Source of the DNA: Atribacterota bacterium
GTDB lineage: Bacteria > Atribacterota > Phoenicimicrobiia > Phoenicimicrobiales > Stramentimicrobiaceae
Assembly: GCA_040767965.1 (NCBI GenBank)
Contig: JAXGNR010000004.1
Coordinates: 192,001 to 256,000 of the forward strand
Direction of reading: 5' to 3'
DNA: 64,000 nucleotides
Made by a program: the position numbers and the translations under genes. The notes under the pieces were generated by a model. It worked only from the letters and a program-made list of their open reading frames with translations, did no database searches and was not told the DNA's origin. This document shows, piece after piece, positions 298 to 23,690 of this stretch; position 1 is the first letter of the stretch; each line of letters opens with the position of its first letter.

Positions 298-882
298 TTG
301 GAAGTTATGCCTCAACTGCAAGATGATTTAAAAATAATTGAATTATGTTTGCTTGGGAACACCCAGCAATTTTCAAATATTATAGAGAAATACAAAGGCA
401 TGGTTTATAATTTAGCTTATCGCATGTGCGGCAATTATCATGATTCGGAAGACATAACCCAGGAAACTTTTGTCAAGACCTTTCAGGCTCTCAGCCATTT
501 TAATCCGGCATTTCGCTTTTCTACCTGGCTTTATCAAATAGCCTTAAACGTTACCAAGGATCGATTGAAAAAGAAGAAGCTGGATAGCGTTTCCCTTGAC
601 AATAATTTTGCAGATGGCCGGGAATTACAAAATGAATTAACTTCTTTTCAAAACAACAAAAACAATCCTGAAAATTATCTGGATAGCGTTGAAAAAAAAG
701 AAATGCTGCAACAGGCCATGCTGTCTTTACCGGTGCAATACCGGGAAATTATTATACTAAGGCATCTGCAAGACCTGAGTTACCAGGAATTAGCCACTAT
801 TTTAAAAGTATCCCCGGATACCGCCCGGGTCCGCTTATTTCGAGCCAGAGAACAATTAAAGAAAATTTTAAAAAATATTTAA
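298..882 (+). CDS. ECF RNA polymerase sigma factor (SigW/RpoE-like)
   Basis: Region 2 (DSEDITQETF..., FSTWLYQIA) and region 4.2 (LP..YREIIILR..QDLSYQELA..L..SPDTARVRLFRAR); start TTG 298 or ATG 307. Confidence 0.93.
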   Translation: MEVMPQLQDDLKIIELCLLGNTQQFSNIIEKYKGMVYNLAYRMCGNYHDSEDITQETFVKTFQALSHFNPAFRFSTWLYQIALNVTKDRLKKKKLDSVSLDNNFADGRELQNELTSFQNNKNNPENYLDSVEKKEMLQQAMLSLPVQYREIIILRHLQDLSYQELATILKVSPDTARVRLFRAREQLKKILKNI

Positions 883-887
883 AGCAC

Positions 888-915
888 TGTAACATTTTTT
901 GTTCTCATTCGTATA
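888..915 (+). promoter_or_regulatory. ECF sigma promoter TGTAAC-N16-CGTATA upstream of anti-sigma gene
   Basis: tgtaac 888-893, 16-nt spacer, cgtata 910-915; fits AAC/CGT ECF consensus (B. subtilis SigW/SigX type); second copy at 4605. Confidence 0.75.
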
Positions 916-978
916 ACAAAGTAGAAGTGAAAATAAATCATTTTAATATTTATATTTTATAGGTGTAAAGATAATAAA

Positions 979-1638
979 ATGAAATGCTTACAAGCAAGAG
1001 AATTATTTCAAGAATATCTTGATAAACATATTTCCGCTGAAAAAAGAAGCCAATTAGAGGAACATTTGCTTAACTGTCCTTCCTGCCAGGAAGATTTAAA
1101 AGAATGGGAAATTCTTTTTTCAGATATTCAAATTCTTACAGAAGAGAAAACTGTTCCTGCAGGATTAACCCAGTCAATTATGTCTCACATCCAGACAGAA
1201 AAAATTACCGCAAAACAATCCTGGATAGAGAAATTAAAACACATTTTTGTAATCCCGCGCTTCTCTTTAAGGTGGGTCTGCAAGCGCACTGTTGCTTTAA
1301 CGGTAATGATATTTTTTGTTAACTTTATCTGGCTATCACCGGAAATGCTGCCAGAGGGGTTGACTGAAGTTCAGTTCAGCCTGAGAGCTGGCGGAGATCA
1401 GCCAACCAGTGTAGCGGTGGTAGGAGACTTTAATGATTGGAATCCCAGCAAAAACCTGTTAAAAGATGAAAACAACGATGGGATCTGGTCGCTAACCTTA
1501 AATCTGGAACCAGGCCGTTATGAGTACATGTTTATAATTGATGGCCAAAAATGGGTACCGGATCCGGAAGCATATCGTTATGTCCGGGATGGTTTCGGCA
1601 ATAAAAATGCAGTAATAGAAATAAGTAATTGCAGCTGA
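979..1638 (+). CDS. Anti-sigma factor: zf-HC2 (ZAS) + TM helix + C-terminal CBM48/AMPK-beta-like glycogen-binding domain
   Basis: C..(x)..HLLNCPSC ZAS motif; hydrophobic segment; SVAVVGDFNDW...GIWSLTLNLEPGRYEYMFIIDGQKWVPDP...DGFGNKN typical of AMPK1_CBM. Confidence 0.88.
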   Translation: MKCLQARELFQEYLDKHISAEKRSQLEEHLLNCPSCQEDLKEWEILFSDIQILTEEKTVPAGLTQSIMSHIQTEKITAKQSWIEKLKHIFVIPRFSLRWVCKRTVALTVMIFFVNFIWLSPEMLPEGLTEVQFSLRAGGDQPTSVAVVGDFNDWNPSKNLLKDENNDGIWSLTLNLEPGRYEYMFIIDGQKWVPDPEAYRYVRDGFGNKNAVIEISNCS

Positions 1639-1697
1639 AAAAGCTGTTAGTGTTAAGAGGAAGAGAAAGAACAAAAATTACAAGGTGTTAAAAATAA

Positions 1698-2675
1698 ATG
1701 AAAAAATTAAGGTTTACTGAAAAATTAAATAATAACAGAATATCATCTTTTCTATTTACCCTGTTATTTATTGTTCTTTTTTTGGTATTTACTGAAACAG
1801 GATTTGCGCAGGAAAAGGAACTTGCGAACCTGGAAAGAATTTTACAGCAGAACAGGTACAGCAGCTTCCAGCAGAGAATGATTATTACCACTACACAGGA
1901 ACTGTTGAAATTACAGGTTGATCATGCAGAGCTTAATAAGCTTTTATCTACCAGCATTGCTAACCGTTTTGATGCTTATAATATTAAAAAGATTTTAGAA
2001 GTAATTATTGATGCTAAAAAGAACGGGCTTTCTGAGAAGTCGCTGCTAAATAAATTTAAAGAAGGTTTAGCCAAAAGAGTAGATGAAAGATTAATTGTAG
2101 AGGTTCTTCTCAAAGAAGCTGAAAATTTAAAAATCGTAAAAAATATGCTTAAAGGCAACTTCATTGCAGAAGTATCATTTGAGCAGGATATTATAGTTGA
2201 TTCTTTAATGGAAGGTTTAAATAACGGAGTGCCGCAGGATTCTCTCTCTGAAGTAATTACCAGGGGTGCACGGGAAGGCAAAAGATTGCGGGAAGTAGCT
2301 GAAGTTAGTGCAGAAATGGGTAATTTAAGCTTAAAAGCTTATGAATTAGGTTTATCTGAACAGGAAGTAAATGAGGTATTTTCCAAAGCTGTAGCAAGCA
2401 GGAGTGGTATTGACGGTATCTGTGAAGATATACAGGATACCCTGATAGCTGCTGCAATAGCCAAAATGAACCTGGCTACCAGAAACAGCTCGGGAAGTTC
2501 CAGTCAGAGTACGTCAATAACCGGTATTTCCGAAGGTGAAGGCAGTACCTCTGGCTCCAGCTCAAGCAGTATTATTCCATCCAGCAGCAGTACTTCAACA
2601 CCTACTGCTTCTGATGACAAACCTGATACTGGCAGTACATCCGATAGCGGCAGTTCATCTCCACCGGAGAATTAA
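1698..2675 (+). CDS. Secreted helical hypothetical protein with Ser/Thr-rich low-complexity C-tail
   Basis: Signal peptide ending GFA-Q; C-terminal ~60 aa dominated by S/T/G/P. Confidence 0.7.
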   Translation: MKKLRFTEKLNNNRISSFLFTLLFIVLFLVFTETGFAQEKELANLERILQQNRYSSFQQRMIITTTQELLKLQVDHAELNKLLSTSIANRFDAYNIKKILEVIIDAKKNGLSEKSLLNKFKEGLAKRVDERLIVEVLLKEAENLKIVKNMLKGNFIAEVSFEQDIIVDSLMEGLNNGVPQDSLSEVITRGAREGKRLREVAEVSAEMGNLSLKAYELGLSEQEVNEVFSKAVASRSGIDGICEDIQDTLIAAAIAKMNLATRNSSGSSSQSTSITGISEGEGSTSGSSSSSIIPSSSSTSTPTASDDKPDTGSTSDSGSSSPPEN

Positions 2676-2843
2676 GAATAATTTACAGTTCTTTTAAAAT
2701 TTAATAAAATAGTATCGAGTATATAGCAGGTAGTATCTAGTGAAAAGTGAAAGCATGTTACGTTTTCCTGCAAAGGTGGAAGGTTATAAATGTATTTTAC
2801 TAACTACTATCGCTAACGACTAACAGATAAAGCAAGCTTCTGC

Positions 2844-2872
2844 TTGACTTTTTAAGCAAAATGCTTTATAAA
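2844..2872 (+). promoter_or_regulatory. sigma70-type promoter for Cys-rich lipoprotein 1
   Basis: TTGACT (2844-2849)-N17-TATAAA (2867-2872). Confidence 0.5.
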
Positions 2873-3084
2873 CTAAAATGATTGACTAAAGTCTTAAAGG
2901 CTGGTCACAAGCCCGCGTGAGGTCGACATGCGGAATATTTACTGTAGAAAATATTTATTTAATACAGGTAAAGAGCTTGAAGTCCAGATAAATAGAAGAG
3001 GAATTAATTAATTTCTCATAAAATCCATGGAAAAAAGAAAAATAGAAAATTAAGAAAAACAAAATTCGAAAGGAGAATTTTTTA

Positions 3085-4050
3085 ATGAAGAAATTTTTAG
3101 TATTATTACTGATCTCAGTCCTAGCCCTGTTTGTTTTTGCCGGTTGTTCTGGCGTAGTTCCAGGCGAAGGCGAAGGCGAAGGTGAAGGTGAAATCGAAGA
3201 AGCAACCGTTGAAATTGACGGTTCTGTAGTCTTAGAAGGCAAAACCTATGTTGCAGCAGGTACTCATACCATTACTGTTACTTTCCCGGCACCAGTAGCT
3301 AATGCAGGTGCCTATTTAAGTGATTGTTCTGGTGATTACAGCAAAGCACCAATGGAACCAGATATTGTCCTTTTCCCAAACGAAGACAAGACCGTCTGGT
3401 CAGGTTCCGGATCTTTTGGTGATGGTGATTGTGAACCCTGCTGTGCTTCTTACCTGTACATCGATGCCGGCGAATGTGAAGAAGATGTCTGTATTGCCAT
3501 TCCGGTAATCGTTGATGGTTTACCTCCATATGCTAAAATTTTAATTGAAGCAGATGGCGATGATTGTGTCTGTGAAGACTGTGATATTACCTTCAGTATT
3601 TATGAAAAAGAAATTGACTGTGCAGATGATGAACTTTGCTGTGGTGATGACTGCTCAGGTTTAGCCAGCTGGTCTATTGCTATCTTTGACGAAGATCCGT
3701 TTGCAGAATGCTGCACCATCCCTTGTGTAGAACCAGTCTTTACCTGCAGCGGCACAGATTGCCCAATTGAATGCTCAACCGGCTGCCTGGTAGTAGGAGA
3801 AGAGGGAGATAAGTACTATGTTATCGTCAGCATGGTTGACCAGGTTGGCAATGATATGGAATACTATGCAACCATTGAAATTGAAAGTGATTGCGAAATT
3901 ACTGTTACTGAACATGCAGCTAATATTCCAGTTGGCGGAATTTACCAATGCACAGATTGGGATGCTCCAATGCCTACTGATGTTGAAGGAACAATCGGAC
4001 ATTGCAATTTTCCAGCATGGACTAATCAATACGGAGAAGAAATCGAATAA
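3085..4050 (+). CDS. Cysteine-rich acidic lipoprotein, paralogue 1 (unknown family)
   Basis: Lipobox FAG-C, (GE)5 linker, 24 Cys in 321 aa by my count, very D/E-rich; SD AAGGAG. Confidence 0.85.
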   Translation: MKKFLVLLLISVLALFVFAGCSGVVPGEGEGEGEGEIEEATVEIDGSVVLEGKTYVAAGTHTITVTFPAPVANAGAYLSDCSGDYSKAPMEPDIVLFPNEDKTVWSGSGSFGDGDCEPCCASYLYIDAGECEEDVCIAIPVIVDGLPPYAKILIEADGDDCVCEDCDITFSIYEKEIDCADDELCCGDDCSGLASWSIAIFDEDPFAECCTIPCVEPVFTCSGTDCPIECSTGCLVVGEEGDKYYVIVSMVDQVGNDMEYYATIEIESDCEITVTEHAANIPVGGIYQCTDWDAPMPTDVEGTIGHCNFPAWTNQYGEEIE

Positions 4051-4085
4051 TAATCTAATATTAATTTAACCAATACTATAAAGAA

Positions 4086-4130
4086 AAAAAAATGGGTTAG
4101 GAATTAAATTTCCTAATCCATTTTTTATTT
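4086..4130 (+). terminator. Intrinsic terminator
   Basis: aaaatgggttaggaa-loop-ttcctaatccatttt followed by T-tract. Confidence 0.8.
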
Positions 4131-4604
4131 TCCTATTAATTTCTGTTTATTTTTTAATATTGAATTACTAAAAATATATAAAATATTTAACAACCAAAAT
4201 ACTTACAGTAAAATTATCTTTTATAACCACTCATAATTATCGATAAAGGTTTTTAATAAATATAGTTAATCATTAATACTATTATAATAATATATTTTTG
4301 TGAGTATTATTCGAAAACTACCAAAACGGTAACTATCCTTTTTTATGCTATTATATTATATGAATAATTAAATAAGCGATTGAGAAAGTGTAGTTAATCC
4401 AAATAAAGTTTTTTATAAATCTTTAAAAAATATGTTAATAATTCTCAAAAAAATTATAATTATGCAAATTGATATTTTTGATTTATTTCTATAATCTGCA
4501 ATCCTCTTTCTCTATAAATTAAGCCATTAAAAATATTCTAATAAGAAAATAATTTATTTAAAAACTATTTAAATTAAAAAAATTACAAAAAAATATAAAT
4601 ATTA

Positions 4605-4632
4605 TGTAACATCTTACTTGTCTTCTCGTATA
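4605..4632 (+). promoter_or_regulatory. ECF sigma promoter TGTAAC-N16-CGTATA upstream of Cys-rich lipoprotein 2
   Basis: tgtaac 4605-4610, 16-nt spacer, cgtata 4627-4632; same boxes and spacing as at 888. Confidence 0.72.
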
Positions 4633-4787
4633 ATAGTTAAGTGTTAATTTTATATTATAATAATGCAGAAAATAATTTTTAGTATTTTAGTATTTGAAGA
4701 ATATTAAAATACAGCAAAATTTAATTATGCAATAAATTTTAGTAAGTAATAATTAATTTAGAAAAAAGAAAAGGAGTAACAAAAAAC

Positions 4788-5804
4788 ATGAAGAAATTTT
4801 TAGTATTATTACTGATCTCAGTTCTGGCCCTGTTTGTCTTTGCCGGCTGTTCCGGCGTAGTCCCGGGCGAAGGTGAAGGCGAAGGAGAAGGCGAAATTGA
4901 AGAAGTAACCGTTGAAATAGACGGTTCTGTAGTCTTAGAAGGTAAAACCTATGTCTCAGCAGGCAACCATACCATTACTGTTACCTTCCCAGCACCGGTT
5001 TCCGGCAGCGTTTCTGCAGAGATTACCGGCTGTACAGGTTATTACGGTGATAAAGGGGAAATTCCAGAGTATAATGGAGCTGTAGTCCTTTTCCCCAATG
5101 AAGACAAAACTGTCTGGTCCGGTTCCGGTTATTTTGGAGGATATATGGGTCCTTTGAGCAGCAGACAAGGATCACCTATACCTATAAACGGATTTTACAA
5201 TGATTGCTGTGCCTCTTATGTCAGAATTAATGCCGGCGAATGTTCTGATGATGTCTGCATCGAATTTCCGGTTATCGTTGATGCTCTACCTCCTTATGCT
5301 TCAATTGTAATAGCTACAGATGATGAATGTGTCTGTGAAGACTGTGATATTACCTTCAGCATTTATGAAAGCGAAGTTGACTGTGCTGATAACGAAGCCT
5401 GCTGTGGTGATGATTGCTCAGGTTTAGCCAGCTGGTCTATTGCTGTCTTTGATACCAACCCGTTTGCAGAATGCTGCACCATTCCTTGTGTAGAACCAGT
5501 CTTTACCTGCAGCGGCACAGATTGCCCAATTGAATGCGCAACCGGCTGCCTGGTAGTAGGAGAAGAGGGAGACATGTACTATGTTATCGTCAGCATGGTT
5601 GACCAGGTTGGCAATGAGAATGAATTCTACGCAACTATAGAGATAGAAAGTGATTGCTCTATAGAGGTACAAGATTATAGCAGCAATATAGAGATTGGTG
5701 GAGTGCCATCCTGTACTGACTGGACCAACGGCCAAATAATCAGCGAAGATACTGAAGCTGGTGGCTATGTATTTGGTTATTGTGGTGATAAATTTAGAAA
5801 TTAA
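4788..5804 (+). CDS. Cysteine-rich acidic lipoprotein, paralogue 2
   Basis: Identical signal peptide/lipobox/(GE)5 to 3085; 23 Cys in 338 aa by my count; conserved Cys spacing. Confidence 0.85.
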   Translation: MKKFLVLLLISVLALFVFAGCSGVVPGEGEGEGEGEIEEVTVEIDGSVVLEGKTYVSAGNHTITVTFPAPVSGSVSAEITGCTGYYGDKGEIPEYNGAVVLFPNEDKTVWSGSGYFGGYMGPLSSRQGSPIPINGFYNDCCASYVRINAGECSDDVCIEFPVIVDALPPYASIVIATDDECVCEDCDITFSIYESEVDCADNEACCGDDCSGLASWSIAVFDTNPFAECCTIPCVEPVFTCSGTDCPIECATGCLVVGEEGDMYYVIVSMVDQVGNENEFYATIEIESDCSIEVQDYSSNIEIGGVPSCTDWTNGQIISEDTEAGGYVFGYCGDKFRN

Positions 5805-5852
5805 CCTGAATTAAAAAATAGAAAAAATAAAATAAAATATAATTGAAATTTA

Positions 5853-5891
5853 ATAAATAAAAGAGGAGGTTTAACCTCCTCTTTTATTTAT
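5853..5891 (+). terminator. Intrinsic (bidirectional-type) terminator
   Basis: ataaataaaagaggaggt-tta-acctcctcttttatttat perfect hairpin. Confidence 0.85.
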
Positions 5892-5992
5892 AGATGCTTT
5901 TTGTATCACAAAAAATAGGAAAAAATGCTATTAATTAATTAAATAAAATCAGATAGAAAATATTTTAATTTAAATCTATTTTTTGGTTTTGC

Positions 5993-6021
5993 TTGTCAAG
6001 GAAGAGATATTTCTATATAAT
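5993..6021 (+). promoter_or_regulatory. sigma70 promoter for lipoprotein at 6029 (probably leaderless)
   Basis: TTGTCA (5993-5998)-N17-TATAAT (6016-6021); ATG at 6029. Confidence 0.6.
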
Positions 6022-6028
6022 ATTTTCT

Positions 6029-6760
6029 ATGATAAAAATTTACCCAATTATAAAAAAAGGTATATTGCTCTTATCCTGTCTAGTATTTGCATTTTTATAT
6101 GCAGGATGCCATCAGGAAATTATTACCTCTAATCCGGATAATAATAATAATGATGACCAGTACTATAATGATATAAGAATACAATCGCTCCTGTTGGTCA
6201 AAGGAAATCCAGATATTGTTAAAGACTGTACTCCGGAATTTACAATATTTACAGAAAAGGATGAAGTTAAAAATATGTCTTTTAGCGGAAATGGGATAGA
6301 CTGGTCTCCCTGGATTCCATATGCCGAGAATTATGAAAATTTTAATATTGCCAGCGGCACATATGGAACTATGCGGGAATCAGGAAATAAAACCATTTAT
6401 ATCCGTTTCCAGGATGAAAATGGAATTGTCTTTCCAGCCGGATCACAGGAACCTGTTGTCTGTAATTTTAAATATAAAATGCAGGATTTGTTTTCTATTA
6501 AAATTGAACCATCAACAACAGAAGTTATGAAAGGTGGAAAAGCTAGTTTCCAAATAAAAGGATATGACATAGTATTAAATGAAGTACCTTTAGATCCTGC
6601 TCTGGCAAGCTGGACCAAGGGTTGCGGTGTGGGGGAATTAAATCCCATAGTTGGTTTAAGTACTACGTATACTGCTCCGGATATTGCCGGTGTAAGAGAT
6701 ATTGCTGCTCATTATGGATCTTTAAGAGTGGGCGCCAAAATATATATTTCAGAAAAATAA
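6029..6760 (+). CDS. Lipoprotein with Ig-like (Big) domains
   Basis: Lipobox YAG-C; FSGNGIDWSPWIPY and GNKTIYIRFQD beta-sandwich motifs; C-terminal domain similar to the 7926 protein; ATG 6029 preferred over TTG 5993. Confidence 0.7.
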   Translation: MIKIYPIIKKGILLLSCLVFAFLYAGCHQEIITSNPDNNNNDDQYYNDIRIQSLLLVKGNPDIVKDCTPEFTIFTEKDEVKNMSFSGNGIDWSPWIPYAENYENFNIASGTYGTMRESGNKTIYIRFQDENGIVFPAGSQEPVVCNFKYKMQDLFSIKIEPSTTEVMKGGKASFQIKGYDIVLNEVPLDPALASWTKGCGVGELNPIVGLSTTYTAPDIAGVRDIAAHYGSLRVGAKIYISEK

Positions 6761-6803
6761 AAATTATTATTAAATAAAGATTTTTAAAAAGGAGAAGATT
6801 ATA

Positions 6804-7555
6804 ATGAAAAAAATATTTGTCGTGTTATTAATATTATCAATAGCTCTGTTTGTTTTTTCCGGCTGTTCCGGTGTAGTCCCGGGTGAAGGTGAAGGCGAGG
6901 GTGAAGGCGAAGGTGAAGGCGAGGGTGAAGTCAAGCAAGTTGTTTTAGTTGAAACATTTGTAGCAGACGGTTGTGGCAATTGTGCCCTTCTTAAACCTAG
7001 ATTAGAAGATCTTGCTGATGAATATGATAGAAATGAAATGATCTTGGTGGAACTAATCCCATGGGCGACTTATTCACTATCTTTAGCTTATGAACGTTTT
7101 GATTGGTATTCACCAGACAACAAGAATATACCACAAACATATTTTAATGGGTCAAATAAAACAGTTGGCAGCTCTGCTTCTTACGCAACATTAAAAAGCA
7201 GAATCGATGCTCAGTTAACACTCACTCCAAAAGTTTCCATTCAGGCTTCTGCGCAGCACAAATGGCCAGACTTCAATAATTACCGGCTCAATTAAAAATA
7301 TTAGCAGCAATGATTTATCAAATCTGGTTATTAACGGAATGACTTTGAAAAGCAGAGGAAGCTTTGGTTATGCAGTAACAAATATTTTTGACAATGAAAA
7401 GATATCTCGTTTCCTCTTTAGCAGCAGGGGAGACTAAAAATTTCACAATGACATTAACAGATATAAATTGGGATGGCCAGGGTTATGATGGAGTTATTTT
7501 TGTTCAGTCTACAAGCGGCATTAAAACCATTTACCAATCTTTATATATTAACTAA
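6804..7555 (+). CDS. Omp28-like thioredoxin-fold lipoprotein (CGNC) with C-terminal Ig domain; two apparent +1 frameshifts
   Basis: FSG-CSGVVP(GE)8, VLVETFVADGCGNC, PQTYFNG; other frames continue RSTNGQTSIITGSIKN... and ...YDGVIFVQSTSGIKTIYQSLYIN*, matching the C-terminus of the 10765 protein. Confidence 0.75.
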
Positions 7556-7622
7556 ATTGTCACAGGGACGGTTTTTTTGACAATATACTACGAAAAATTA
7601 TTTTGTAGTATATTGTCAAAAA
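7556..7622. repeat. REP-like repeat copy 1 (ATTGTCACAGGGACGGTTYTTTTGACAA) plus adjoining hairpin
   Basis: 28-bp unit at 7556-7583, one mismatch to 8336-8363; TTTTTGACAATATACTAC/GTAGTATATTGTCAAAAA inverted repeat overlaps it. Confidence 0.7.
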
Positions 7623-7925
7623 TTAATATAAGTTCTTTTAAATGTAAACATAAACATTTATGAGTACAACATGAAACAGGCCTGTATCTTGATTAAATTT
7701 AAGATACAGGTTGTACTATCTTGTATCAACAATGATGTTTTGATCTAGCTTTTGTTTTTAAAAGGTTTTCAAATAAAAATTAAAAACTAAAACAAGTAAT
7801 ATTGTAAGTATCAAAAAATGAGCAGGATCACTTGTTTATATGCAAAATTCTCATTCGATCTGCCAGATATAAAAAATAAGAAAAGCCACTGAACTAAAAC
7901 ATAAACAATAAAGGAGAACTTTTAG

Positions 7926-8333
7926 ATGAAAAAAATATGTTTATTGCTTTTAATAGTAATATTCTCATTTTTAATAATCGGATGTTCCGGAGTTACACCC
8001 AATACTCCTGGAGATGAATATGATGAACAAAATACACAGGTATCTTATATAAAAGTTACACCAGCAAGTACAGAGCTTTCCTTTGGCCAGTCCAAAAAAT
8101 TTGAAGTCAAGGCTTACAATTCTGAAAACAAATTGGTTGCCATGGATGCCTCTAAGATTAAATGGACCTGTACTTATGAATGTATTGCCTGCGGAGTAGT
8201 TTGTAATGTATCACCAGTTACAGGATCAGCACAGACAACTTTTAAAGCAACCAACCCTGAAAAAACCGGCAGCTTTGAAGTCTGGGCAAATTATGATGGA
8301 AAATGGGCTAAGGCAAACGTTACTGTAAACTAA
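7926..8333 (+). CDS. Small lipoprotein with Ig-like (Big_2-type) domain and Cys cluster
   Basis: IIG-CSGVTP; IKVTPASTELSFGQSKKFEVKAY...W; WTCTYECIACGVVC. Confidence 0.75.
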   Translation: MKKICLLLLIVIFSFLIIGCSGVTPNTPGDEYDEQNTQVSYIKVTPASTELSFGQSKKFEVKAYNSENKLVAMDASKIKWTCTYECIACGVVCNVSPVTGSAQTTFKATNPEKTGSFEVWANYDGKWAKANVTVN

Positions 8334-8335
8334 AG

Positions 8336-8363
8336 ATTGTCACAGGGACGGTTCTTTTGACAA
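8336..8363. repeat. REP-like repeat copy 2
   Basis: attgtcacagggacggttcttttgacaa immediately after the stop codon, as for copy 1. Confidence 0.7.
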
Positions 8364-8516
8364 CATAAAATACTTCTCGAAGCATAAAATAGATAAGTAT
8401 TCTAATCCATTGCCAGCAGAAGAGGATTGAATTAAAAAGAATAGTACACTAAATTCACTGACACTGATAGAAAAAGTATAGATTTTAACAATATTAATAT
8501 TGTTAAGTGTGATGAT

Positions 8517-10658
8517 ATGGAATCAAAAGAAAATATGAATCAAAGAAAGAACAAAATATCATTATGGAATGAAAGCATCATTGCGGTTTTGGCAGCTATA
8601 GTAATATTTATCCCTATTATCTTTTATCCATATTGCATTCCTGCATTCGATCCAATTAAAAATACTGTCCTGCAACTACTAGCTTTGCTGGGACTGGGTA
8701 TATTTGTTCTAAAAAATATTTATACAGAGAAATTTTCTTTTGAAAAAAAACCTGTTGATAAAATTATTTTTCTATACTTATTGTATGGCTCAATTTCACT
8801 AATCTGGTCTGTAAATATTTACCACAGCATTATGGCTTGGCCTTTATTCTTGGCAGGTCCGATATTATACTTTCTTTCTTCAAATACAGTTAAAAAACAG
8901 CCTAATTTGAATTTTTTAGTATTAATTATTTTATATTCAGGAACCATTAAGGGTTTTTATGGAATTCTACAGTATTTAGGAATTGATTTTGATTTCTGGG
9001 CTGGAAATGTTAACCGTGGACAGGTTTTCGGCTTGTTTGGAAATGTAAATTATTTTGCGGAATATTTGATATTACCATTATCTTTAGCTCTGGGTTTATT
9101 TATAAATAAAGAGCGGGTGTTCTCACGATTATATTTAATTATTTCTTTAATTGCCATGGGCGGAGGATTGTTTTTTACTTTTACCAGAGGATCTTATCTG
9201 GGTATTGCAGCAGCTTTAACAGTTATGATGGTTTTATACTACCAAGGATCAATAGAAAAAACGCATAAAAAATATTACCAAAGAATGATCCTATTTTTTC
9301 TTATAATGATATTTATTGCTTTGGCTGTTATTTACATTCCTCATACTTTTAACAAAGCAGGTACTCCGCTAGGAAGGCTTAGAGAAAGAGTAACCATTGA
9401 AAATATTACCTCTGGCAATAATACCATACGAAGAATTGCCATTTGGAAAATTACCTGGTTAATGATAAAGGACCGTCCTGTATTAGGTTCCGGAATAGGA
9501 ACTTTTGATTACCATACTTTGGATTATCAGGCAAAATTTTTTGCCCAGGGAGATAATAGAGATATTTACCCTCATGGTTTTGCTGCACAGAGCCATAATG
9601 AATATTTGCAGATATGGTCTGAATTGGGATTAGTCGGATTATTGTTGTTTCTTGGAATTACTTTTGTCTATTACAGGCATGTCCTGTTAAATTTAAAAAG
9701 AATAAATAAAATAAAAGAAAAAGCAATTGTTATTGGCCTGGCAGGGGGTATAGCAGCAGTTTTAGTAGATGCCCTGGTTAATTTCCCTTTACAATTGCCT
9801 GGTTCTATTGTCTTATTTTGGTTATTCATTGGCCTTACTAACACTCAAATAAATATATCCTGTAATACTGCACAGTTGGCTGGTAAAGAAGATACAAATA
9901 CCAGGATAATCGATTCAAAAAATATTAATACTCATCAAAAAAATACTGATAGCAATTCACAGAAAAGATTTATTTCAAATAATATTGTAAAAATTACTCT
10001 GACAGTATTGGTAATATTAATTATTATCATTGCTTCTAGTTTTATTATCAGGCCTTTTATAGCCAGGGTTTATTGGTATTATGGTAATCGACAGATAGTT
10101 AAAGGAAACTTTAATGAAGCTATCAGTATATATGAAAAAGGATTAAAATGGAACCCCTGGCAGGGAGAGATGCATTTTGACATTGCAAGTATTTTAATGA
10201 GTAAAGGAATAAATAATGTAGCTTTAGAAAATTTTGAGCAAGCAGAAAAGTATGTTGCACATCATAATATACCTCAGAATATTGCTGCTATTTATTTAAG
10301 ATGGGGGGAAGCTGAAAGAGCAATTCCTTTCCTGGAAAAGAGCATTTTATATCAAAAAGACAAAAAGAGTATGCTTCCTTATCAATTACAATTGGGGAAT
10401 ATATATTTAGCTAAAAAAAACTTTCAAAAAGCCAAAGAATATTTTGGTTCTGCTATTGATAATAACCCGGATAATGCTGAAGCATATTATGGAATTGCAG
10501 GGGTTTATGTAAATACCGGAGATAAAGAGCTGACTGTTGAATCTTTAAAAAAGGTAATTGAATTAGCTCCGGAAAGCAAATTGGCTGGTTATGCTAAAAC
10601 TATGTTAATTAAAATAGAATTAGATAGCATAAAAGATACTTCGGTTTTTATCGAGTAA
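8517..10658 (+). CDS. O-antigen ligase / O-oligosaccharyltransferase family (Wzy_C) membrane protein with C-terminal TPRs
   Basis: Multiple TM helices; FGNVNYFA, TFTRGSYLG, R..IW..., GSGIGTF, HNEYLQIWSELGLVG motifs; TPR repeats at C-terminus. Confidence 0.88.
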   Translation: MESKENMNQRKNKISLWNESIIAVLAAIVIFIPIIFYPYCIPAFDPIKNTVLQLLALLGLGIFVLKNIYTEKFSFEKKPVDKIIFLYLLYGSISLIWSVNIYHSIMAWPLFLAGPILYFLSSNTVKKQPNLNFLVLIILYSGTIKGFYGILQYLGIDFDFWAGNVNRGQVFGLFGNVNYFAEYLILPLSLALGLFINKERVFSRLYLIISLIAMGGGLFFTFTRGSYLGIAAALTVMMVLYYQGSIEKTHKKYYQRMILFFLIMIFIALAVIYIPHTFNKAGTPLGRLRERVTIENITSGNNTIRRIAIWKITWLMIKDRPVLGSGIGTFDYHTLDYQAKFFAQGDNRDIYPHGFAAQSHNEYLQIWSELGLVGLLLFLGITFVYYRHVLLNLKRINKIKEKAIVIGLAGGIAAVLVDALVNFPLQLPGSIVLFWLFIGLTNTQINISCNTAQLAGKEDTNTRIIDSKNINTHQKNTDSNSQKRFISNNIVKITLTVLVILIIIIASSFIIRPFIARVYWYYGNRQIVKGNFNEAISIYEKGLKWNPWQGEMHFDIASILMSKGINNVALENFEQAEKYVAHHNIPQNIAAIYLRWGEAERAIPFLEKSILYQKDKKSMLPYQLQLGNIYLAKKNFQKAKEYFGSAIDNNPDNAEAYYGIAGVYVNTGDKELTVESLKKVIELAPESKLAGYAKTMLIKIELDSIKDTSVFIE

Positions 10659-10764
10659 ATAAAAACAAACACTCTTTTAGTGTTTTTCAAAGATTAAATA
10701 TATTTTCAATTATTTAAAAAACAAATTTTTTGAACTATATTTTAGGATTAGGTATAATAAAAAT

Positions 10765-11571
10765 ATGAAAAAAAATAAAAAATCAATTAAAAAAATAATT
10801 TTTTCTTATATTGTGATTTCAGCACTGATTTTATTATTCTCTACTTTTTCTGTTTGTGCCCAGAACGATCCTGATAAAAAGGACAGTTACTCAATCCCTG
10901 CTGAAATATCCAAAAATGTATTGATCGAACTTTTTATCAATAAGGGATGCTCTGTTTGCCCTAAAGCAGCATTTTGCCTGGAGGAGATTGTGTGGGGGTA
11001 TGAACCAGGTAAGGTAATTTTGGTAGAAAGCCATATTTGGGGTGATGGTTTTGACACACCAGAAACCAATACCCGTTATAACTGGTATGCTGGTGATGGA
11101 CCTAAAGGAACTCCTGATGCCTTTTTTAATGGAATGTCAGACAGGATGCAGGGTTTATGTTGTGATTGCGGTGATATAGATGAAAACATTTCTGCCTATC
11201 AGGAGATAATCGAAAAACATTTAAGCAAAACAACTCCTATAAAAATAACAGCCAAGCAGGAAATATATGGTGATAAGATAATCATAGAAGGAGAAGTTGC
11301 CAATAAAAGTCATTCCATGTTAAACAATCTATTTTTAAGTGGAATTATCTATTTTGAAGGAGATGAGAGCGAGTTTTTCTACCTGACTAAATATATATTT
11401 GAAAATCAGGATATCTGTCAGTTAGCACCTCTGGAAAATCGTAAATTCAGCTTTGTTGCCGACTTAGAATTAAACAAATTAGAAAAAATTGAACAGCAAA
11501 AATATCGAGGGGTGGTATTTGTGCAAGAAAAACTAAGCAAGGAAGTAGTGCAATCTTTTCTTATTCCTTAA
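10765..11571 (+). CDS. Exported Omp28-like thioredoxin-fold protein (CSVC)
   Basis: Signal peptide; VLIELFINKGCSVCP, GTPDAFFNG; extra CCDC; C-terminal GVVFVQ Ig domain homologous to 6804. Confidence 0.75.
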   Translation: MKKNKKSIKKIIFSYIVISALILLFSTFSVCAQNDPDKKDSYSIPAEISKNVLIELFINKGCSVCPKAAFCLEEIVWGYEPGKVILVESHIWGDGFDTPETNTRYNWYAGDGPKGTPDAFFNGMSDRMQGLCCDCGDIDENISAYQEIIEKHLSKTTPIKITAKQEIYGDKIIIEGEVANKSHSMLNNLFLSGIIYFEGDESEFFYLTKYIFENQDICQLAPLENRKFSFVADLELNKLEKIEQQKYRGVVFVQEKLSKEVVQSFLIP

Positions 11572-11681
11572 ATAAATAGTATCATGTAAAAAATATTTTA
11601 GTTCTTTAACAATTTCGAAGCACAATTTATACTAAGATTAGTGAAATATTTAATTCTAAAAGGCAGGTTAGATGCAGTAAA

Positions 11682-12296
11682 ATGGGGAAAAATTATAGAA
11701 AATCCAAAATAATAATTTTAAATGTTGCATTAATAGTAATATTTATTTTATCCGGCATAAGCCAAGTATTTGCACAATGTGAAATATCTTCTCCTGCTCC
11801 CGATTTTATATTACAGGATTTAAACGGGGAAACTTTCCAGTTAAACCAGATTAAAAATAAGTATCAATATGTTTTAATCAGTTTTTTGCAGGCAAATAAC
11901 TCTAATTCAATTAATAAATTAAGTGAGCTGGTAAACTTTTTTGAAAACTGTAAACCAGCAGAAAATTACCTTCTTTTAGCTATTCTTGCTGATACAGAAA
12001 ATTCAGAGTTTCAAAAAGATAAGTTTATTAATTTACAAAAAAGAACAGAGGTTCCTATAACATTATTATCTGCTGAAGATAGTCAGGTATTAGAAGATTA
12101 TCAAATAGAAGGATATCCTACAATTATTTTATTAAGAAATGATCTTTGTGTCAGGAAAATATATTCAAAATTTACTGACCATGTTGAGAAGTCTTTTTAT
12201 CAGTATCTTACATTTATAATGGCCTGCCAGAAATCCAGCAATAATAACAATAGTTCCTGTGATAGTGGAGTTTGTCCACCACCTGCCGGTTATTAA
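11682..12296 (+). CDS. Exported TlpA/AhpC-TSA-like redoxin lacking the CxxC site
   Basis: APDFILQDLNGE, YQIEGYPT cis-Pro loop; CxxC position reads NSNS; Cys-containing C-tail CDSGVCPPP. Confidence 0.7.
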   Translation: MGKNYRKSKIIILNVALIVIFILSGISQVFAQCEISSPAPDFILQDLNGETFQLNQIKNKYQYVLISFLQANNSNSINKLSELVNFFENCKPAENYLLLAILADTENSEFQKDKFINLQKRTEVPITLLSAEDSQVLEDYQIEGYPTIILLRNDLCVRKIYSKFTDHVEKSFYQYLTFIMACQKSSNNNNSSCDSGVCPPPAGY

Positions 12297-12322: not shown

Positions 12323-14091
12323 TTGGATTATATAGCGAAATACCAAAAATGGCTAAAAAGTTCTTTTCTTAGTGCAGAGGACAAGAATGAACTGCTTTCT
12401 ATTTCCGAAAACAAAGAAGAGATACAGGATCGTTTTTATAAAGAGTTAGAGTTTGGGACAGCAGGATTGCGCGGTAAGATTGGCATGGGAACTAACAGAA
12501 TGAATATATATACAGTTGGAAAAACTACCCAGGGCCTGGCAAACTATTTACTGCAAAATACAGAAAGCCCTCAAGAAAGAGGAGTAGCCATTGCATATGA
12601 TTGCAGGTATAAGTCCCGGGAATTTTCTGCAAGGGCAGCCCAGGTACTGGCAGCTAATGGTATTAAAGTTTACCTTTTTGAGGATATCAGACCAACTCCT
12701 GAATTATCTTTTGCTGTTTATCACCTGCAAGCTGCTGCTGGCATAGTTATAACTGCCAGCCATAATCCGCCAGAATATAATGGTTATAAAGTTTATGCGG
12801 AAAATGCTGCTCAAATCATGCCGGAAACAGCTGATAAAATAATTGAAGAAATAAGCAAGATCAAAGATGATTCTGCAGTTAAAATAATTTCTTTACAAGA
12901 AGCACAGAATAGTTCTTTGGTAATAAATATCGGGGCAGATATAGATAAAATATATTATCAAAAAATAAAACAACTCTCTTTGAGTGAAGATATTGACAAA
13001 AAAGTCAAAATAGTATTTACCCCATTACATGGTACCGGCAATCGACCTATAAGGGAAATCTTAGAAAGCCTGAATTATGAAAACTTGTCGATAGTGGAAG
13101 AGCAAGCAGGCCCTGACCCGGAATTTTCTACTGTTGACTCCCCCAATCCGGAAAATCCGGCAGCATTTAAAATGGCGGTAAAATCAGGGCTGAAAAAAAA
13201 TGCTGATATTCTGATTGCAACTGATCCTGATTGCGACCGGATTGCAGTGGCAGTTTTCAATCCTAAAATTTTTGAAAAATGTAACGATGAGGCAAACTTG
13301 TTTGACACTATAAATAATTATGTTTTTAAATGGTAATCAGACAGGTGCCCTGTTACTAAATTATATTTTAGAGAAGAAAAGAGAATAACCAGCTACCAAT
13401 AGGATCTTTTGTCATTAAAACAATAGTAACTTCAGATCTGGGGAAAAAAGTAGCAGAAAAATACAATATTCAGATCTATGATACTTTAACAGGATTTAAA
13501 TTTATCTGCAATAAGGCAATGGAACTTGAAAAAAAAGGTGGTACTTTTTTATTTGGCTATGAGGAAAGTATCGGTTATCTGGCAGGAAATTTTGTCAAAG
13601 ACAAAGATGCGGTTATCTGTGCTATGCTGATTGCAGAAATGACCGCTTATTATAAGAAAAGAAACTTATCGCTTTTGGATGTGCTTGCTGATTTATACGG
13701 ACAATACGGATATTTCCTGGATCATCTGGAATCCATTACCTTAGAGGGAATGGCCGGGGAACTGCAAATGAAAAAAATAATGGCTTCTTTTAGAGAGCAA
13801 TTTCCAGTTATTCCCGGAATGGATGTTGCCCAAAAAATAGATTACCTGTCATCATTTCAATATGATTATCTTAAAAAAGAACAAAAATTGATTGATATCC
13901 CGCAAGAAGATGTTTTAAAGTGTTTTTTTACCGATGGGTCCTGGTATGCAATTCGCCCATCAGGTACTGAACCAAAAATAAAGATTTATATGTCTTTAGT
14001 GGGCAAAGATAAAAAACAATCTGAAGAAAAGCTATTGAAAATGAAATCTGTAATTTTACAAAAGATAAACAGTATTTTAAAGTATTCTTAG
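12323..14091 (+). CDS. pgm: Phosphoglucomutase/phosphomannomutase, split by two apparent indels near 13325 and 13386
   Basis: FGTAGLRG, TASHNP, DPDCDR, then LNGNQTG, KTIVT, LTGFK in shifted frames, GYEESIG, RPSGTEPKIK. Confidence 0.88.
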
Positions 14092-18928: not shown

Positions 18929-18989
18929 ATAAACTATTTTTTAAAAATAGCAGTCACCTTTTAATATTAATTGTTAATATTTTTATAGT

Positions 18990-19075
18990 TGTTAAATGGT
19001 AAACTATTCTAAAGAATAGGACACAAAACTATGGGTCTAAAGCTATTGCCAGGATTGCCAGGTTGCCAACTATCT
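18990..19075 (+). ncRNA. c-di-GMP-I (GEMM) riboswitch
   Basis: GGTAAAC-TATTC-TAAA-GAATAG-GACACAAAAC..GGGTCTAAAG...GCCAGGTTGCC follows the GEMM-I layout, with compensatory GT/AC pairing. Confidence 0.8.
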
Positions 19076-19175: not shown

Positions 19176-19871
19176 ATGTCTGTTGCAGAAAATTTTCAGA
19201 AGATAAGATCGGGAATTCCTTCTCATGTCAAAATTGTCGCAGCTGCCAAAACACGCACAACAGGAGAAGTAGAAGAATTAATTAAAGCAGGAATAACCGA
19301 TATTGGGGAAAACTATGTGCAGGAAGCTGAAGAAATAATAAAATCTCTAAAGCCGGAACTGATTGAAAAAGTGAATTGGCATTTAATTGGTCATTTACAA
19401 AAAAATAAAATAAATAAAGCACTGCCTATTTTTAATTTAATTCAAAGCGTAGATTCCTTAGACTTAGCCAGAGAGATAAATAAGAGAGTGCAAAAGGCAG
19501 GAAAGGAATATATTTCTATTTTACTGGAAATAAATATTGGCAGCGAATTTTCCAAACATGGAATCCAACCTGATAAGAGCAATAACATAGATTTTGAGGA
19601 ATATATAGAAAAATTAGCCAGAGAGATTTCACTGCTTCCAGGGATCCGCATGGAGGGATTGATGACCATGGGACCTCAATTTGATGACCCTGAAAAATTA
19701 CGTCCATTTTTTAAAAAAACGAAAAAAATTTTTACCAGATTAGCAACATTAAATTTGGAGAGGCTTAATATGAAATATTTATCAATGGGTATGAGCAACT
19801 CTTATAAGGTGGCAATTGAAGAAGGTGCTAACATGGTAAGGATTGGAACTGCTATTTTTGGTCCCAGATAG
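19176..19871 (+). CDS. yggS: PLP homeostasis protein YggS/PROSC
   Basis: AAAKT, GENYVQE, WHLIGHLQKNK, SVDS, GLMTM, LSMGMS, VRIGTAIFG. Confidence 0.95.
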   Translation: MSVAENFQKIRSGIPSHVKIVAAAKTRTTGEVEELIKAGITDIGENYVQEAEEIIKSLKPELIEKVNWHLIGHLQKNKINKALPIFNLIQSVDSLDLAREINKRVQKAGKEYISILLEINIGSEFSKHGIQPDKSNNIDFEEYIEKLAREISLLPGIRMEGLMTMGPQFDDPEKLRPFFKKTKKIFTRLATLNLERLNMKYLSMGMSNSYKVAIEEGANMVRIGTAIFGPR

Positions 19872-22326: not shown

Positions 22327-22402
22327 GGGCCCATAGCTCAGCTGGTAGAGCAGCCGGCTCATAACCGGCCGGTCCCTGGTTCGAATCCGGGTGGGCCCAC
22401 CA
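22327..22402 (+). tRNA. tRNA anticodon CAT, probably tRNA-Ile2 (lysidine), alternatively elongator Met
   Basis: GGGCCCA/TGGGCCC acceptor stem, TAGCTCAG D-arm, CTCATAA loop, GGTTCGAATCC T-arm, encoded CCA; 76 nt; resembles Ile2 tRNAs. Confidence 0.93.
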
Positions 22403-23333: not shown

Positions 23334-23690
23334 CTGGCAAGTGAACCAGGTAATCGCAGGCTTAGCAATAAGCTTGAGGAAAGTCCGAGCTCCAAAGGGC
23401 AAGATGCTGGGTAACTCCCAGTAAGGGTGACCTTAGGAAAGTGCTACAGAAAAGAAAACAGCCAATATGGCAATGGTGAAAAGGTAGGGTAAGAGCCTAC
23501 CAGTTATTGGGTGACCAATAAGCTTAGCAAACCCCATCTGGAGCAAGATCAAGAAGGAAACAATTAGTTGCCCGCTAGAAGTTTCCGGGTAGATCGCTAG
23601 AAGCAGAGGGTAACCTCTGTTCAAGATAGATGATTACCGCATCATATTTTTAATATGGTGACAGAACTCGGCTTATGATTCACTTGCCAG
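23334..23690 (+). ncRNA. rnpB: RNase P RNA
   Basis: GAGGAAAGTCCGAGC, GGAAAGTGCTACAGAAA, GGTAAGAGC, AAACCCC..GGAGCAAG, ACAGAACTCGGCTTA; P1 ends CTGGCAAGTGAA/TTCACTTGCCAG. Confidence 0.97.

Follow-up and report, generated by a model that had tools for sequence, protein, structure and literature searches.

A candidate envelope locus of JS1 Atribacterota centred on a cysteine-rich lipoprotein with apparent intramolecular disulfides

How bacteria without DsbB, VKOR and MauE make structural disulfides is posed as an open question by Dutton et al. 2008 and in the preprint on MauE (10.64898/2026.03.05.709764), the latter putting the share of species without all three at about 20%. The locus described here offers a sharp test case: in a genome of strict-anaerobe type, in which none of the three was found, a protein family with 10-16 apparent disulfides is encoded beside uncharacterised CxxC proteins. 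The locus lies at 298-12296 of a window of 64,000 nucleotides (nt) from an Atribacterota bacterium (positions 192,001 to 256,000 of contig JAXGNR010000004.1, assembly GCA_040767965.1; 'the window' is this whole stretch, to which coordinates without a contig name refer) and consists of 11 genes, all co-oriented on the + strand. What does such a locus build, and how is its product controlled? An earlier note on this DNA had proposed a disulfide-cross-linked or metal-binding, possibly glycosylated, layer of surface lipoproteins with its own folding catalysts, and each gene that it listed is present in its place on the + strand. Our reading, to which we give a rough probability of 0.55, is that of an envelope locus of the JS1 class in which a disulfide-held, Ig-like lipoprotein would be made under the control of an extracytoplasmic function (ECF) sigma factor and of a leader RNA, accompanied by redox proteins and by a Wzy_C enzyme for glycan ligation.

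The cysteine-rich lipoproteins CysA and CysB

CysA (3085-4050) and CysB (4788-5804) are paralogues and 73% identical. CysA has 24 cysteines, with 65 aspartates and glutamates against 8 lysines and arginines; CysB has 23 cysteines, and 57 acidic against 9 basic residues. The two acidic lipoproteins of 23-24 cysteines in the earlier note are thus confirmed. Profile searches match neither to a characterised family of Pfam or NCBIfam, and the 120 homologues of CysA listed, of 452, are all unnamed or 'hypothetical' and almost all without a Pfam domain. Both proteins carry a GE-repeat linker. At least three GE repeats near the N-terminus, after a signal peptide, occur in 4 of 2880 open reading frames (ORFs) of at least 80 amino acids (aa), and these four are three paralogues of the family of CysA (the Cys family) and the CxxC lipoprotein of the same locus.

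The alignment of the Cys family includes 112 of the 120 listed homologues, the other 8, much longer or shorter, being dropped. The lipobox residues G20 and C21 are invariant in 112/112 members, and 21 cysteine columns are invariant or more than 90% conserved. The total number of cysteines is odd in 93 of the 112 members (21, 23, 25, 27, 29, 31 and 33 cysteines in 7, 12, 22, 20, 19, 11 and 2 members, respectively), which is an even count without the lipid-modified cysteine. Cysteine columns that vary do so in pairs. For four pairs the members with both cysteines, only the first and only the second number 31/0/0, 97/0/0, 10/0/0 and 104/2/1, and for residues 185 and 307, which are 122 apart, 102/1/1. 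This gain and loss of cysteines in matched pairs favours intramolecular disulfides over metal sites, and on the evidence of the alignment members of the family apparently hold about 10-16 of them. As CysA has 23 mature cysteines, one may be free. The disulfide-cross-linked layer of the earlier note therefore stands in part: the cysteines behave as disulfide partners, but the signal is that of bonds within one molecule.

The AlphaFold2 (AF2) model of CysA (pLDDT 86.3, pTM 0.78) is all-beta, with one domain at about residues 37-146 and a second at about 147-269. Foldseek and VIA-align matched it to tandems of Ig/FN3/filamin type at Z 7.4-9.2, which are generic values, and weak 0.81 matches to Big_7 and Big_13 Ig clusters in the ESM Atlas serve as a lead only. 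CysA and CysB are accordingly modelled, with that qualification, as tandem Ig-like sandwiches. A complex prediction for three copies of CysA residues 38-321 scored 0.39 against a mark of 0.42 and counts neither for nor against an assembly. A further lipoprotein of the same genome (hereafter the home genome), of 194 aa with 23 cysteines (22 after the lipobox cysteine; C5:57309-57893), did not emerge as a relative of CysA and CysB.

The family has a narrow distribution. The class Phoenicimicrobiia is the former JS1, with two families, in the account of PMC11227167, and NCBI taxonomy assigns the same-family relative 'Candidatus Stramentimicrobium fermentans' to this class and to the order Phoenicimicrobiales. 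Homologues of CysA and related contigs carry Atribacterota source names, and a profile search of genome contigs with the Cys family gave at least 5 loci, all from Atribacterota among the matches listed. Profile searches of genomes found the Cys family in 14 of 21 genomes of one family of Phoenicimicrobiales (f1) and in 10 of 30 of the other (f2), and the CxxC family in 15 of 21 and 21 of 30, respectively; many of the surveyed genomes are fragmented metagenome-assembled genomes, for which 'not found' differs from 'absent'. Neither family was found in 34 genomes from five other Atribacterota families, several of them single-contig. Judged from these profiles, we are dealing with an envelope locus specific to one lineage, the JS1 class (Phoenicimicrobiia). 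A highly expressed lipoprotein that PMC7736352 describes in Atribacter laminatus had been a candidate homologue and was dropped on the same 0/34 count for genomes outside the JS1 order.

Gene order is conserved as well. Twelve relatives' loci, taken around Cys-family matches (two are contigs of one genome), were scanned with the proteins of the window, and the scan also took in two loci with lone Cys paralogues of the home genome (C8:123534 and C5:116608). The order TPR lipoprotein, sigE, anti-sigma factor, Ser/Thr-tailed protein, Cys-rich lipoprotein, (Lp255), CxxC lipoprotein, Lp135, Wzy_C/TPR protein, second CxxC protein, (redoxin), or contig-limited parts of it, is found in 12/12 relatives' loci, spanning two families. 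It is fuller where the contig is long enough (genomes G003, G015, G008 and G019), partial on shorter contigs (G020, G012, G014, G006, G005, G022 and G037) and the same in G085, of the second family. The expectation of the earlier note that these genes are co-conserved in relatives is thus borne out, since the order recurs across both families of Phoenicimicrobiales.

An ECF sigma factor and a leader RNA

The first gene of the locus, sigE (298-882), encodes a protein of 194 aa that matches Sigma70_r2 (70.6 bits, 9.7e-20), Sigma70_r4_2 (58.6 bits, 4.8e-16) and Sigma70_ECF (22.5 bits), each over its cut-off. With regions 2 and 4 only, it is by its sequence an ECF sigma factor (sigma-70 group 4). 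Its best NCBIfam model is SigW (NF007223, 1.7e-48), and with 164.9 bits against a cut-off of 209 bits it is SigW-like rather than SigW. Orthologues in syntenic loci are 44-70% identical. The gene of the anti-sigma factor (979-1638) adjoins sigE, 96 nt downstream; its product combines a zf-HC2 domain (3.6e-8), a membrane span and an extracytoplasmic CBM48/AMPK1_CBM-like domain (AMPK1_CBM 9.1e-12, CBM_48 3.7e-7), and NCBIfam anti-sigma models also match. A long perfect inverted repeat with 17-nt arms (233-293) lies immediately 5' of the TTG start of sigE and probably serves the TPR gene before it as a terminator.

The motif TGTAACA-N14-16-CGTATAA has two matches in the whole 2.33 Mb genome, and both are in the locus on the + strand: copy 1 (888-916) lies 5' of the anti-sigma gene and copy 2 (4605-4633) 155 nt 5' of CysB. 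Both are exact and have identical spacing, TGTAACAT-N13-TCGTATAA, also written TGTAACAT-N13-NCGTAT. With one mismatch and three spacings allowed, 6 further sites appear, none near related genes, and the looser TGTAAC-N15-17-CGTA has 5 sites genome-wide, 2 at the locus and 3 elsewhere. By composition arithmetic, an exact second site at this spacing is expected about 0.2 times per genome and about 5e-4 times per one strand of 12 kb. The promoter motif that the earlier note attached to the ECF pair does recur inside the locus, but its first copy stands between sigma and anti-sigma and not 5' of sigma.

A stronger argument for ECF control than the rarity of the motif is its conservation across genomes. 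All of the distinct TGTAAC-N15-17-CGTA matches in the loci compared (13/13) lie on the coding strand, 32-303 nt 5' of genes of three types. Eight precede the anti-sigma gene (G003, G015, G008, G020, G019, G012, G022 and G085), two a Cys-rich gene (the home CysB and a gene of G085) and three the redoxin gene that heads a redoxin-CxxC-DUF1573 operon (G026, G023 and G038). This sample is biased in that loci were taken around these genes, and the same loci contain many other genes without a match. G025 adds a site 5' of an anti-sigma gene; in all, the motif stands at the same spacing 5' of the anti-sigma gene in 9 genomes besides the home genome. ECF control as put forward in the earlier note gains from these data, the motif preceding anti-sigma, Cys-rich or redoxin genes in different genomes.

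The putative promoter of CysA is sigma-70-like. The sequence CTTGACT-N17-TATAAA at 2843-2874 (+ strand) matches the consensus by position, and a TTGAC-type hexamer followed by an A/T-rich, -10-like element can be seen by eye at the corresponding position upstream of most orthologues, though not of all. A structured 5' leader RNA of CysA follows at 2894-3035. The segment is strikingly conserved in 11 genomes; RNAalifold gives four helices, and the loop of P2, GAGGTCGA, is nearly invariant. In the alignment of the 11 genomes 95.9% of the cells are paired, against 35-48% when the partners are slid, and nine pairs show compensatory double changes, 7 of them in helix 3; none of 500 shuffles reached these values. 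In helix 4 the sole change is from A-U to G-U, as one would expect of base pairs in RNA more than of an operator in DNA.

When 52 genomes of the order were searched with a covariance model of the leader (R1), 24 of them gave matches, 29 in total. By coordinate comparison, 21 of the 29 share the strand of a Cys-family gene and lie directly 5' of it. Three more precede secreted or lipoprotein genes read as DUF3494-type (ice-binding-like), one in G035 and two in G033, a label that for the loci concerned (L047, G035:C75; L048, G033:C81) is a reading of the sequence by eye; four matches run off contig ends and one is ambiguous. The leader occurs once in the home genome, the upstream region of CysB being without it. 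A comparison of the leader with the 4227 covariance models of Rfam gave nothing at gathering score in the window, the best E on 2650-3120 being 2.2-5.2. The leader is a new, compact, covarying RNA motif linked to genes of secreted proteins. Among the mRNAs of S-layer proteins, long structured leaders are known.

Contigs with 0 differences from the window come from three metatranscriptome runs, all of one study of an anaerobic digester. Those of CysA cover the gene fully, at 3005-4072, 3090-4093 and 3090-3411 with 3382-4073, at a word depth of 45-70, and end at 4072-4093, at or just before a terminator-like hairpin (4087-4126, a 17-pair stem followed by a T run). The other genes of the locus are represented by contigs of 165-460 nt only, at depths of 2.6-8.4, and a stretch of the locus for which the RNA libraries gave no contig need not be silent. 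The start at 3005 probably reflects a break in the assembly at a helix common to other strains. These contigs hint that CysA is highly expressed.

Redox proteins, the Wzy_C enzyme and the remaining genes

The CxxC lipoprotein (6804-7555, motif CGNC) and the second, secreted CxxC protein (10765-11571, motif CSVC, 8 cysteines) are paralogues, and C62 and C65 are invariant in 15/15 sequences. A profile of the family matches PDB thioredoxins at 2e-5, aligned across the CxxC motif, and the N-terminal half is thioredoxin-like; on this sequence evidence both are members of the thioredoxin superfamily. The likeness to Omp28 and DUF1223 proteins is weaker. NF033782 (Omp28 family lipoprotein) gives 28.1 and 34.4 bits (1e-6 and 1.3e-8, the latter for the 10765-11571 protein) against a cut-off of 150, PF11551 gives E 0.16, and for the 10765-11571 protein DUF1223 (PF06764) gives 21.7 bits (2.3e-4), below the gathering cut-off of 30.7, and an Omp28-related selenoprotein model 1.7e-4, likewise under its cut-off. 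The two homologous Omp28-like CxxC proteins of the earlier note are indeed paralogues with a CxxC motif, but the Omp28 similarity is sub-threshold.

The gene of the CxxC lipoprotein, whose product has the same signal peptide and GE linker as CysA and CysB, is broken in the assembly: ORF 6804-7295 is followed by frames at 7219-7437 and 7379-7555, with two apparent frameshifts. The second shift disappears in a near-identical, independent RNA-library contig, which is one base shorter at 7408, and aligned orthologues have uninterrupted ORFs of about 246-272 aa. A 758-aa lipoprotein at L022:3448-5724 (G006:C14) joins a CxxC thioredoxin-like module to Ig domains of He_PIG/Big_9 type and to a Peptidase_C14 domain, which is caspase-like; its neighbour is another such fusion, of about 810 aa.

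The redoxin (11682-12296) has a ResA/AhpC fold. It matches PF00578 (AhpC-TSA; 40.1 bits, 4e-10) over the 26-bit cut-off and ResA (2e-9) under cut-off. The AhpC/TSA fold of the redoxin in the earlier note is upheld, but a CxxC motif (or peroxidatic cysteine) at the canonical position is absent in 9/9 aligned members; invariant in all nine is a C-terminal C-x4-C followed by prolines. A second atypical redoxin with the same C-x4-C-PPP tail is encoded elsewhere in the home genome (C8:82921-84290), followed by a 240-aa DUF1573-like lipoprotein, and this pair mirrors the one 3' of the cluster in G008 and G006.

The redoxin also adjoins the CxxC lipoprotein in a housekeeping neighbourhood in G026, G023, G025 and G034 (g12, g13) and in G038 (g11), genomes in which the Cys family was not found. 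In G026, G023 and G034 the next gene encodes a DUF1573-type protein, and the other two contigs end there. The presence of the pair in genomes without a Cys-family match shows that the redox module predates that family and extends beyond it, and the 'dedicated' folding catalysts of the earlier note were too strong a term. Just 5' of the pair in G026, G023, G025 and G038 lies the gene of a conserved membrane protein of 405-430 aa with an outer CxxC glutaredoxin-like domain, six helices and invariant cysteines in NPC and ACTGQ motifs. Copies of this thioredoxin-fused protein were found in the home genome (C11:26316-27548) and at L033:7640-8932, L034:8244-9461, L035:7533-8774 and L036:7573-8847. 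Its membrane domain has no DsbD_TM or DsbD_2 match in Pfam and no PDB match, and ArsG matches at 2.3e-6, under cut-off.

DsbB, VKOR and MauE were not found in the home genome, which is 98% complete, by searches that detected them in control genomes, and two DsbD_TM/CcdA homologues are the only thiol-transfer membrane proteins recognised. Proteins of the DsbD/CcdA type classically supply reductant. A crude count of cysteine parity, based on our own ORF calling and signal-peptide heuristics and on proteins with at least 2 cysteines, gave 86 even to 32 odd for exported and 541 to 432 for cytoplasmic proteins (Fisher p 3.5e-4). The bias persists without the four Cys-family paralogues. The even-cysteine logic is that of Dutton et al. 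2008, as the preprint on MauE (10.64898/2026.03.05.709764) cites it.

The polytopic protein of 8517-10658 has a Wzy_C domain (87.1 bits, 1.3e-24), the only PF04932 match in the genome, and C-terminal TPR families; matches to NCBIfam models of IctB (1.8e-26) and of an exosortase-associated O-glycosylation ligase (5.8e-19) are sub-cut-off. LpxC and KdtA were not found in the home genome, although they were detected in control genomes, and BamA is present. Such a genome points to a diderm without lipopolysaccharide (LPS), in which a WaaL role for the enzyme is unlikely. This agrees with the Wzy_C+TPR protein without nearby LPS genes, in an anaerobe, of the earlier note, the genome being that of an anaerobe-type member of Atribacterota. 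In relatives, Wzz-type, UDP-sugar and glycosyltransferase-like genes adjoin the cluster, of which the Wzz-type were family-scanned and the others read from the N-termini of ORFs. Wzy_C with a C-terminal TPR is the architecture of WsfB, a candidate S-layer protein O-oligosaccharyltransferase (O-OTase), and of PglL as presented in PMC2943079; according to PMC3643930, genes of PglL often lie beside those of their targets, and the PglL_A motif (PF15864) marks the PglL type of protein O-OTase.

A possible acceptor is the Ser/Thr-tailed protein (1698-2675, 325 aa). In its AF2 model (pLDDT 79) helices extend over residues 12-264, with values above 90 over about 40-264 and below 50 for residues 265-319, so that it is modelled as a membrane-anchored or secreted all-alpha helical repeat with a disordered Ser/Thr/Pro tail. 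Its 47 homologues are all unnamed, the gene is always 3' of the anti-sigma gene, and a short Ser/Pro-rich motif at the extreme C-terminus recurs at the ends of relatives' ORFs. No Pfam or NCBIfam family, no Foldseek match at E<=0.001 and only unnamed ESM Atlas clusters were found for it. Fold matches were mainly to designed helical repeats, the top VIA hit (Z 11.6) being a designed cage, and gave no functional lead. As a bare hypothesis, the tail might be glycosylated.

Lp255 (5993-6760), a 255-aa lipoprotein of an unnamed family with orthologues 41-53% identical, is co-conserved in the locus. Its residues 169-252 match an orthologue of the 135-aa lipoprotein Lp135 (7926-8333) at 30% identity (E 1.5e-4), Lp135 being related to the C-terminal part of Lp255. 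Neither has a match in Pfam or NCBIfam, and PDB profile searches gave nothing usable. The label 'Ig-domain' given to them in the earlier note is not sustained, its sole hint being a weak PDB profile match (E 0.005) to a Hoc-like protein. The lipoboxes FAGC, FSGC, YAGC and IIGC were read by eye in the lipoproteins of the locus. A single operon was considered and rejected in view of strong terminator-like hairpins after CysA and, with an 18-pair stem followed by a T run, after CysB (5853-5891).

Upstream of sigE, the window opens with the 3' end of the TPR lipoprotein gene (3-215, + strand; full ORF C4:190926-192215, 429 aa), a conserved neighbour with tblastn matches directly 5' of sigE in L011-L015 and L037. 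The orthologue at L012:16199-17410 matches TPR families, the YfiO/BamD-like PF13525 (6e-14) and CarbopepD_reg_2. On the 3' side of the cluster a phosphoglucomutase/phosphomannomutase is split into ORFs 12323-13336 (domains I-II) and 13519-14091 (domains III-IV); in relatives it is a single ORF of 597-615 aa. After 13322, a DNA contig of a different sample carries a 2-base insertion, which by frame arithmetic does not alone restore the frame. This split gene and the two shifts in the 6804 gene suggest indel errors in the assembly or recent decay. Farther on, the window contains a c-di-GMP-I riboswitch aptamer (18988-19070; 69 bits, E 2e-11) 5' of ORF 19176-19871, a tRNA-Met (22327-22402) and RNase P RNA class A (23338-23690; 295.6 bits).

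Alternative readings and known systems

The mechanism that we propose is as follows. The main product would be an acidic lipoprotein of tandem Ig-like sandwiches, held by about 10-16 intramolecular disulfides, and would serve as a major envelope or surface protein tethered through its lipid and a flexible GE-repeat linker. CysA would be made from a sigma-70-like promoter through the conserved structured 5' leader, and CysB, as a stress-induced isoform, once the SigW-like sigma factor is freed from its membrane anti-sigma factor; the same sigma factor would also drive the anti-sigma gene and the gene of the Ser/Thr-tailed protein. The CxxC proteins and the atypical redoxin would form, shuffle or maintain envelope disulfides, with the Cys-rich lipoproteins as prominent clients. 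The Wzy_C+TPR protein would ligate an undecaprenyl-linked glycan to an acceptor other than lipid A, most plausibly protein, that is, the Ser/Thr tail or the lipoproteins. The abundance and surface location of the lipoproteins, their induction by the ECF sigma factor and the client relationship to the redox proteins, with its direction, are thus what we infer, as are protein glycosylation by the Wzy_C protein and a surface layer.

Several points weigh against this reading. The 93 of 112 family members with odd cysteine totals are related proteins and not 112 independent trials. The locus comprises several transcription units, and the ECF motif here is directly 5' of the anti-sigma gene and CysB only; where it stands 5' of the redoxin gene (G026, G023 and G038), the search for an anti-sigma orthologue found none, and the closest sigma factor has only about 31% identity. 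The depth of contigs cannot rank genes, and RNA libraries can contain DNA. The Cys paralogues at C8:123534 and C5:116608 stand alone in unrelated contexts. As only DsbD_TM/CcdA homologues were found, an oxidase role for the redox proteins is without support from precedent. Furthermore, 5 JS1 genomes from two genera, with a completeness of 88-93%, have the redoxin-CxxC pair but gave no match to the Cys family (E<=1e-10), and in the 4 of them that were inspected the pair adjoins housekeeping genes; hence it is not exclusive to Cys-rich clients. Finally, the Wzy_C protein gave no match to PglL_A at E<=0.01.

Our reading could be taken further, to a JS1 disulfide relay independent of DsbB, VKOR and MauE, with the surface lipoprotein, then the dominant one of the cell, as its main client and the ECF sigma factor and leader tuning the supply of client and catalyst. 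Its parts would be the Omp28-like CxxC proteins, the C-x4-C-PPP redoxin and the thioredoxin-fused, six-helix membrane protein at C11:26316-27548 with its two invariant membrane cysteines. This extension is a tentative one, and we hold it to be unlikely.

Among the alternatives, the one that survives best treats the genes as neighbours and not as one system: an ECF pair for envelope stress in general, a general periplasmic module that reduces or repairs thiols with reductant from CcdA-type proteins, an enzyme that ligates or polymerises polysaccharide, and lipoproteins without relation to these would merely have stayed together. The separate terminators and promoters, and the Cys paralogues found alone elsewhere, speak for it, as do the redoxin-CxxC-DUF1573 mini-cluster in a housekeeping context without Cys-rich genes (G026, G023, G025 and G034) and the presence of DsbD_TM homologues, while Wzz-type and sugar-nucleotide genes near the cluster in relatives would suit polysaccharide work. 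Against it, the genes keep their order across two families, and the same ECF motif stands 5' of Cys-rich or redoxin genes in different genomes. The CxxC lipoprotein has its signal peptide and GE linker in common with the Cys family and with almost nothing else, and the Cys and CxxC families have the same class-level distribution. We regard this alternative as rather improbable.

A second alternative makes the Cys-rich lipoproteins binding proteins and not a structural layer, for example receptors, or adhesins that attach to particles or partner cells, with CysA and CysB as alternative variants and CysB switched on under envelope stress. Adhesins typically have tandem Ig/FN3 folds, and the fold matches include InvE, SdrG and SiiE; genomes hold several diverged Cys paralogues, and the same leader stands 5' of genes read by eye as DUF3494-type in G033 and G035. 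Against this, the searches recognised no family of ligand-binding proteins, the matches in fold are of a generic kind (Z 7-9), and an abundant structural protein would account equally well for the identical RNA-library contigs that cover CysA in full, which leaves a binding role distinctly improbable. That the cysteines bind metals or metal-sulfide clusters in the manner of metallothioneins or Fe-S proteins, for metal buffering or scavenging at the surface, as the earlier note had allowed, is very improbable: CxC, CxxC and vicinal CC motifs, a very acidic composition, the sulfidic anoxic habitat expected for the lineage (record labels name landfill and digester) and CopC and CrdA among the generic fold matches (Z 8.1-8.4) would suit it, but the variable cysteines come and go strictly in twos, one pair being 122 residues apart, and totals favour even numbers, whereas for metal sites one would expect changes by three or four cysteines at a time, the cysteines sit in a confidently modelled beta-sandwich, and exported proteins genome-wide favour even numbers of cysteines.

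For the envelope locus that we favour, the components are each of a known kind: an ECF module, an Ig-like lipoprotein, a thioredoxin fold, a Wzy_C enzyme and a structured leader. As far as our searches of the literature and of Rfam, Pfam and NCBIfam show, what is undescribed is the way they are combined, together with the protein families without a name, the atypical redoxin and the leader RNA; a literature search on Atribacterota and S-layers gave nothing on envelope proteins of JS1. The literature consulted presents JS1 (Phoenicimicrobiia) as a widespread class of anoxic, carbon-rich habitats, and the isolates of Atribacterota that it names (PMC11227167, PMC13408713) all belong to the other class, although no search aimed at a pure culture of JS1 was made. 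The locus provides a concrete candidate for a major envelope protein of JS1 and for its regulation.

Known systems resemble parts of the locus. With SigW/RsiW of B. subtilis it has in common a two-domain ECF sigma factor and an adjacent zinc-finger anti-sigma factor with a membrane span, and its promoter is of the AAC-type at -35 and the CGT-type at -10; AAC and CGT are the promoter consensus of the SigW group of B. subtilis. It differs in a score under the SigW equivalog cut-off, in a conserved promoter between sigma and anti-sigma, in the CBM48-like outer domain of the anti-sigma factor, and in an apparent regulon of lipoproteins and thiol-redox proteins. The S-layer loci of Paenibacillus and Geobacillus (WsfB/WsaB) and PglL likewise combine Wzy_C and a C-terminal TPR near genes of surface proteins, whereas the JS1 protein has no PglL_A match, no glycan-synthesis genes lie within 12 kb, and the host is a diderm with BamA.

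The pathways of DsbA with DsbB, VKOR or MauE similarly involve exported CxxC proteins of thioredoxin fold, which here adjoin disulfide-rich clients, but none of the three membrane partners was found in the 98%-complete home genome. To our knowledge no function has been assigned to Omp28 and DUF1223 proteins. In these proteins, as in the CxxC proteins of the locus, the N-terminal half is thioredoxin-like and bears a redox motif; one of the locus proteins is a lipoprotein, and the similarity is weak but consistent; the locus proteins form a JS1-restricted clade with scores far under the family cut-offs. Finally, OmcA and OmcB of Chlamydia and the cysteine-rich wall proteins of planctomycetes are likewise rich in cysteine, include one lipidated class and belong to atypical envelopes. 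CysA and CysB have no family match in a Pfam scan at E<=5 and, unlike these proteins, give evidence of intramolecular disulfides within Ig-like domains.

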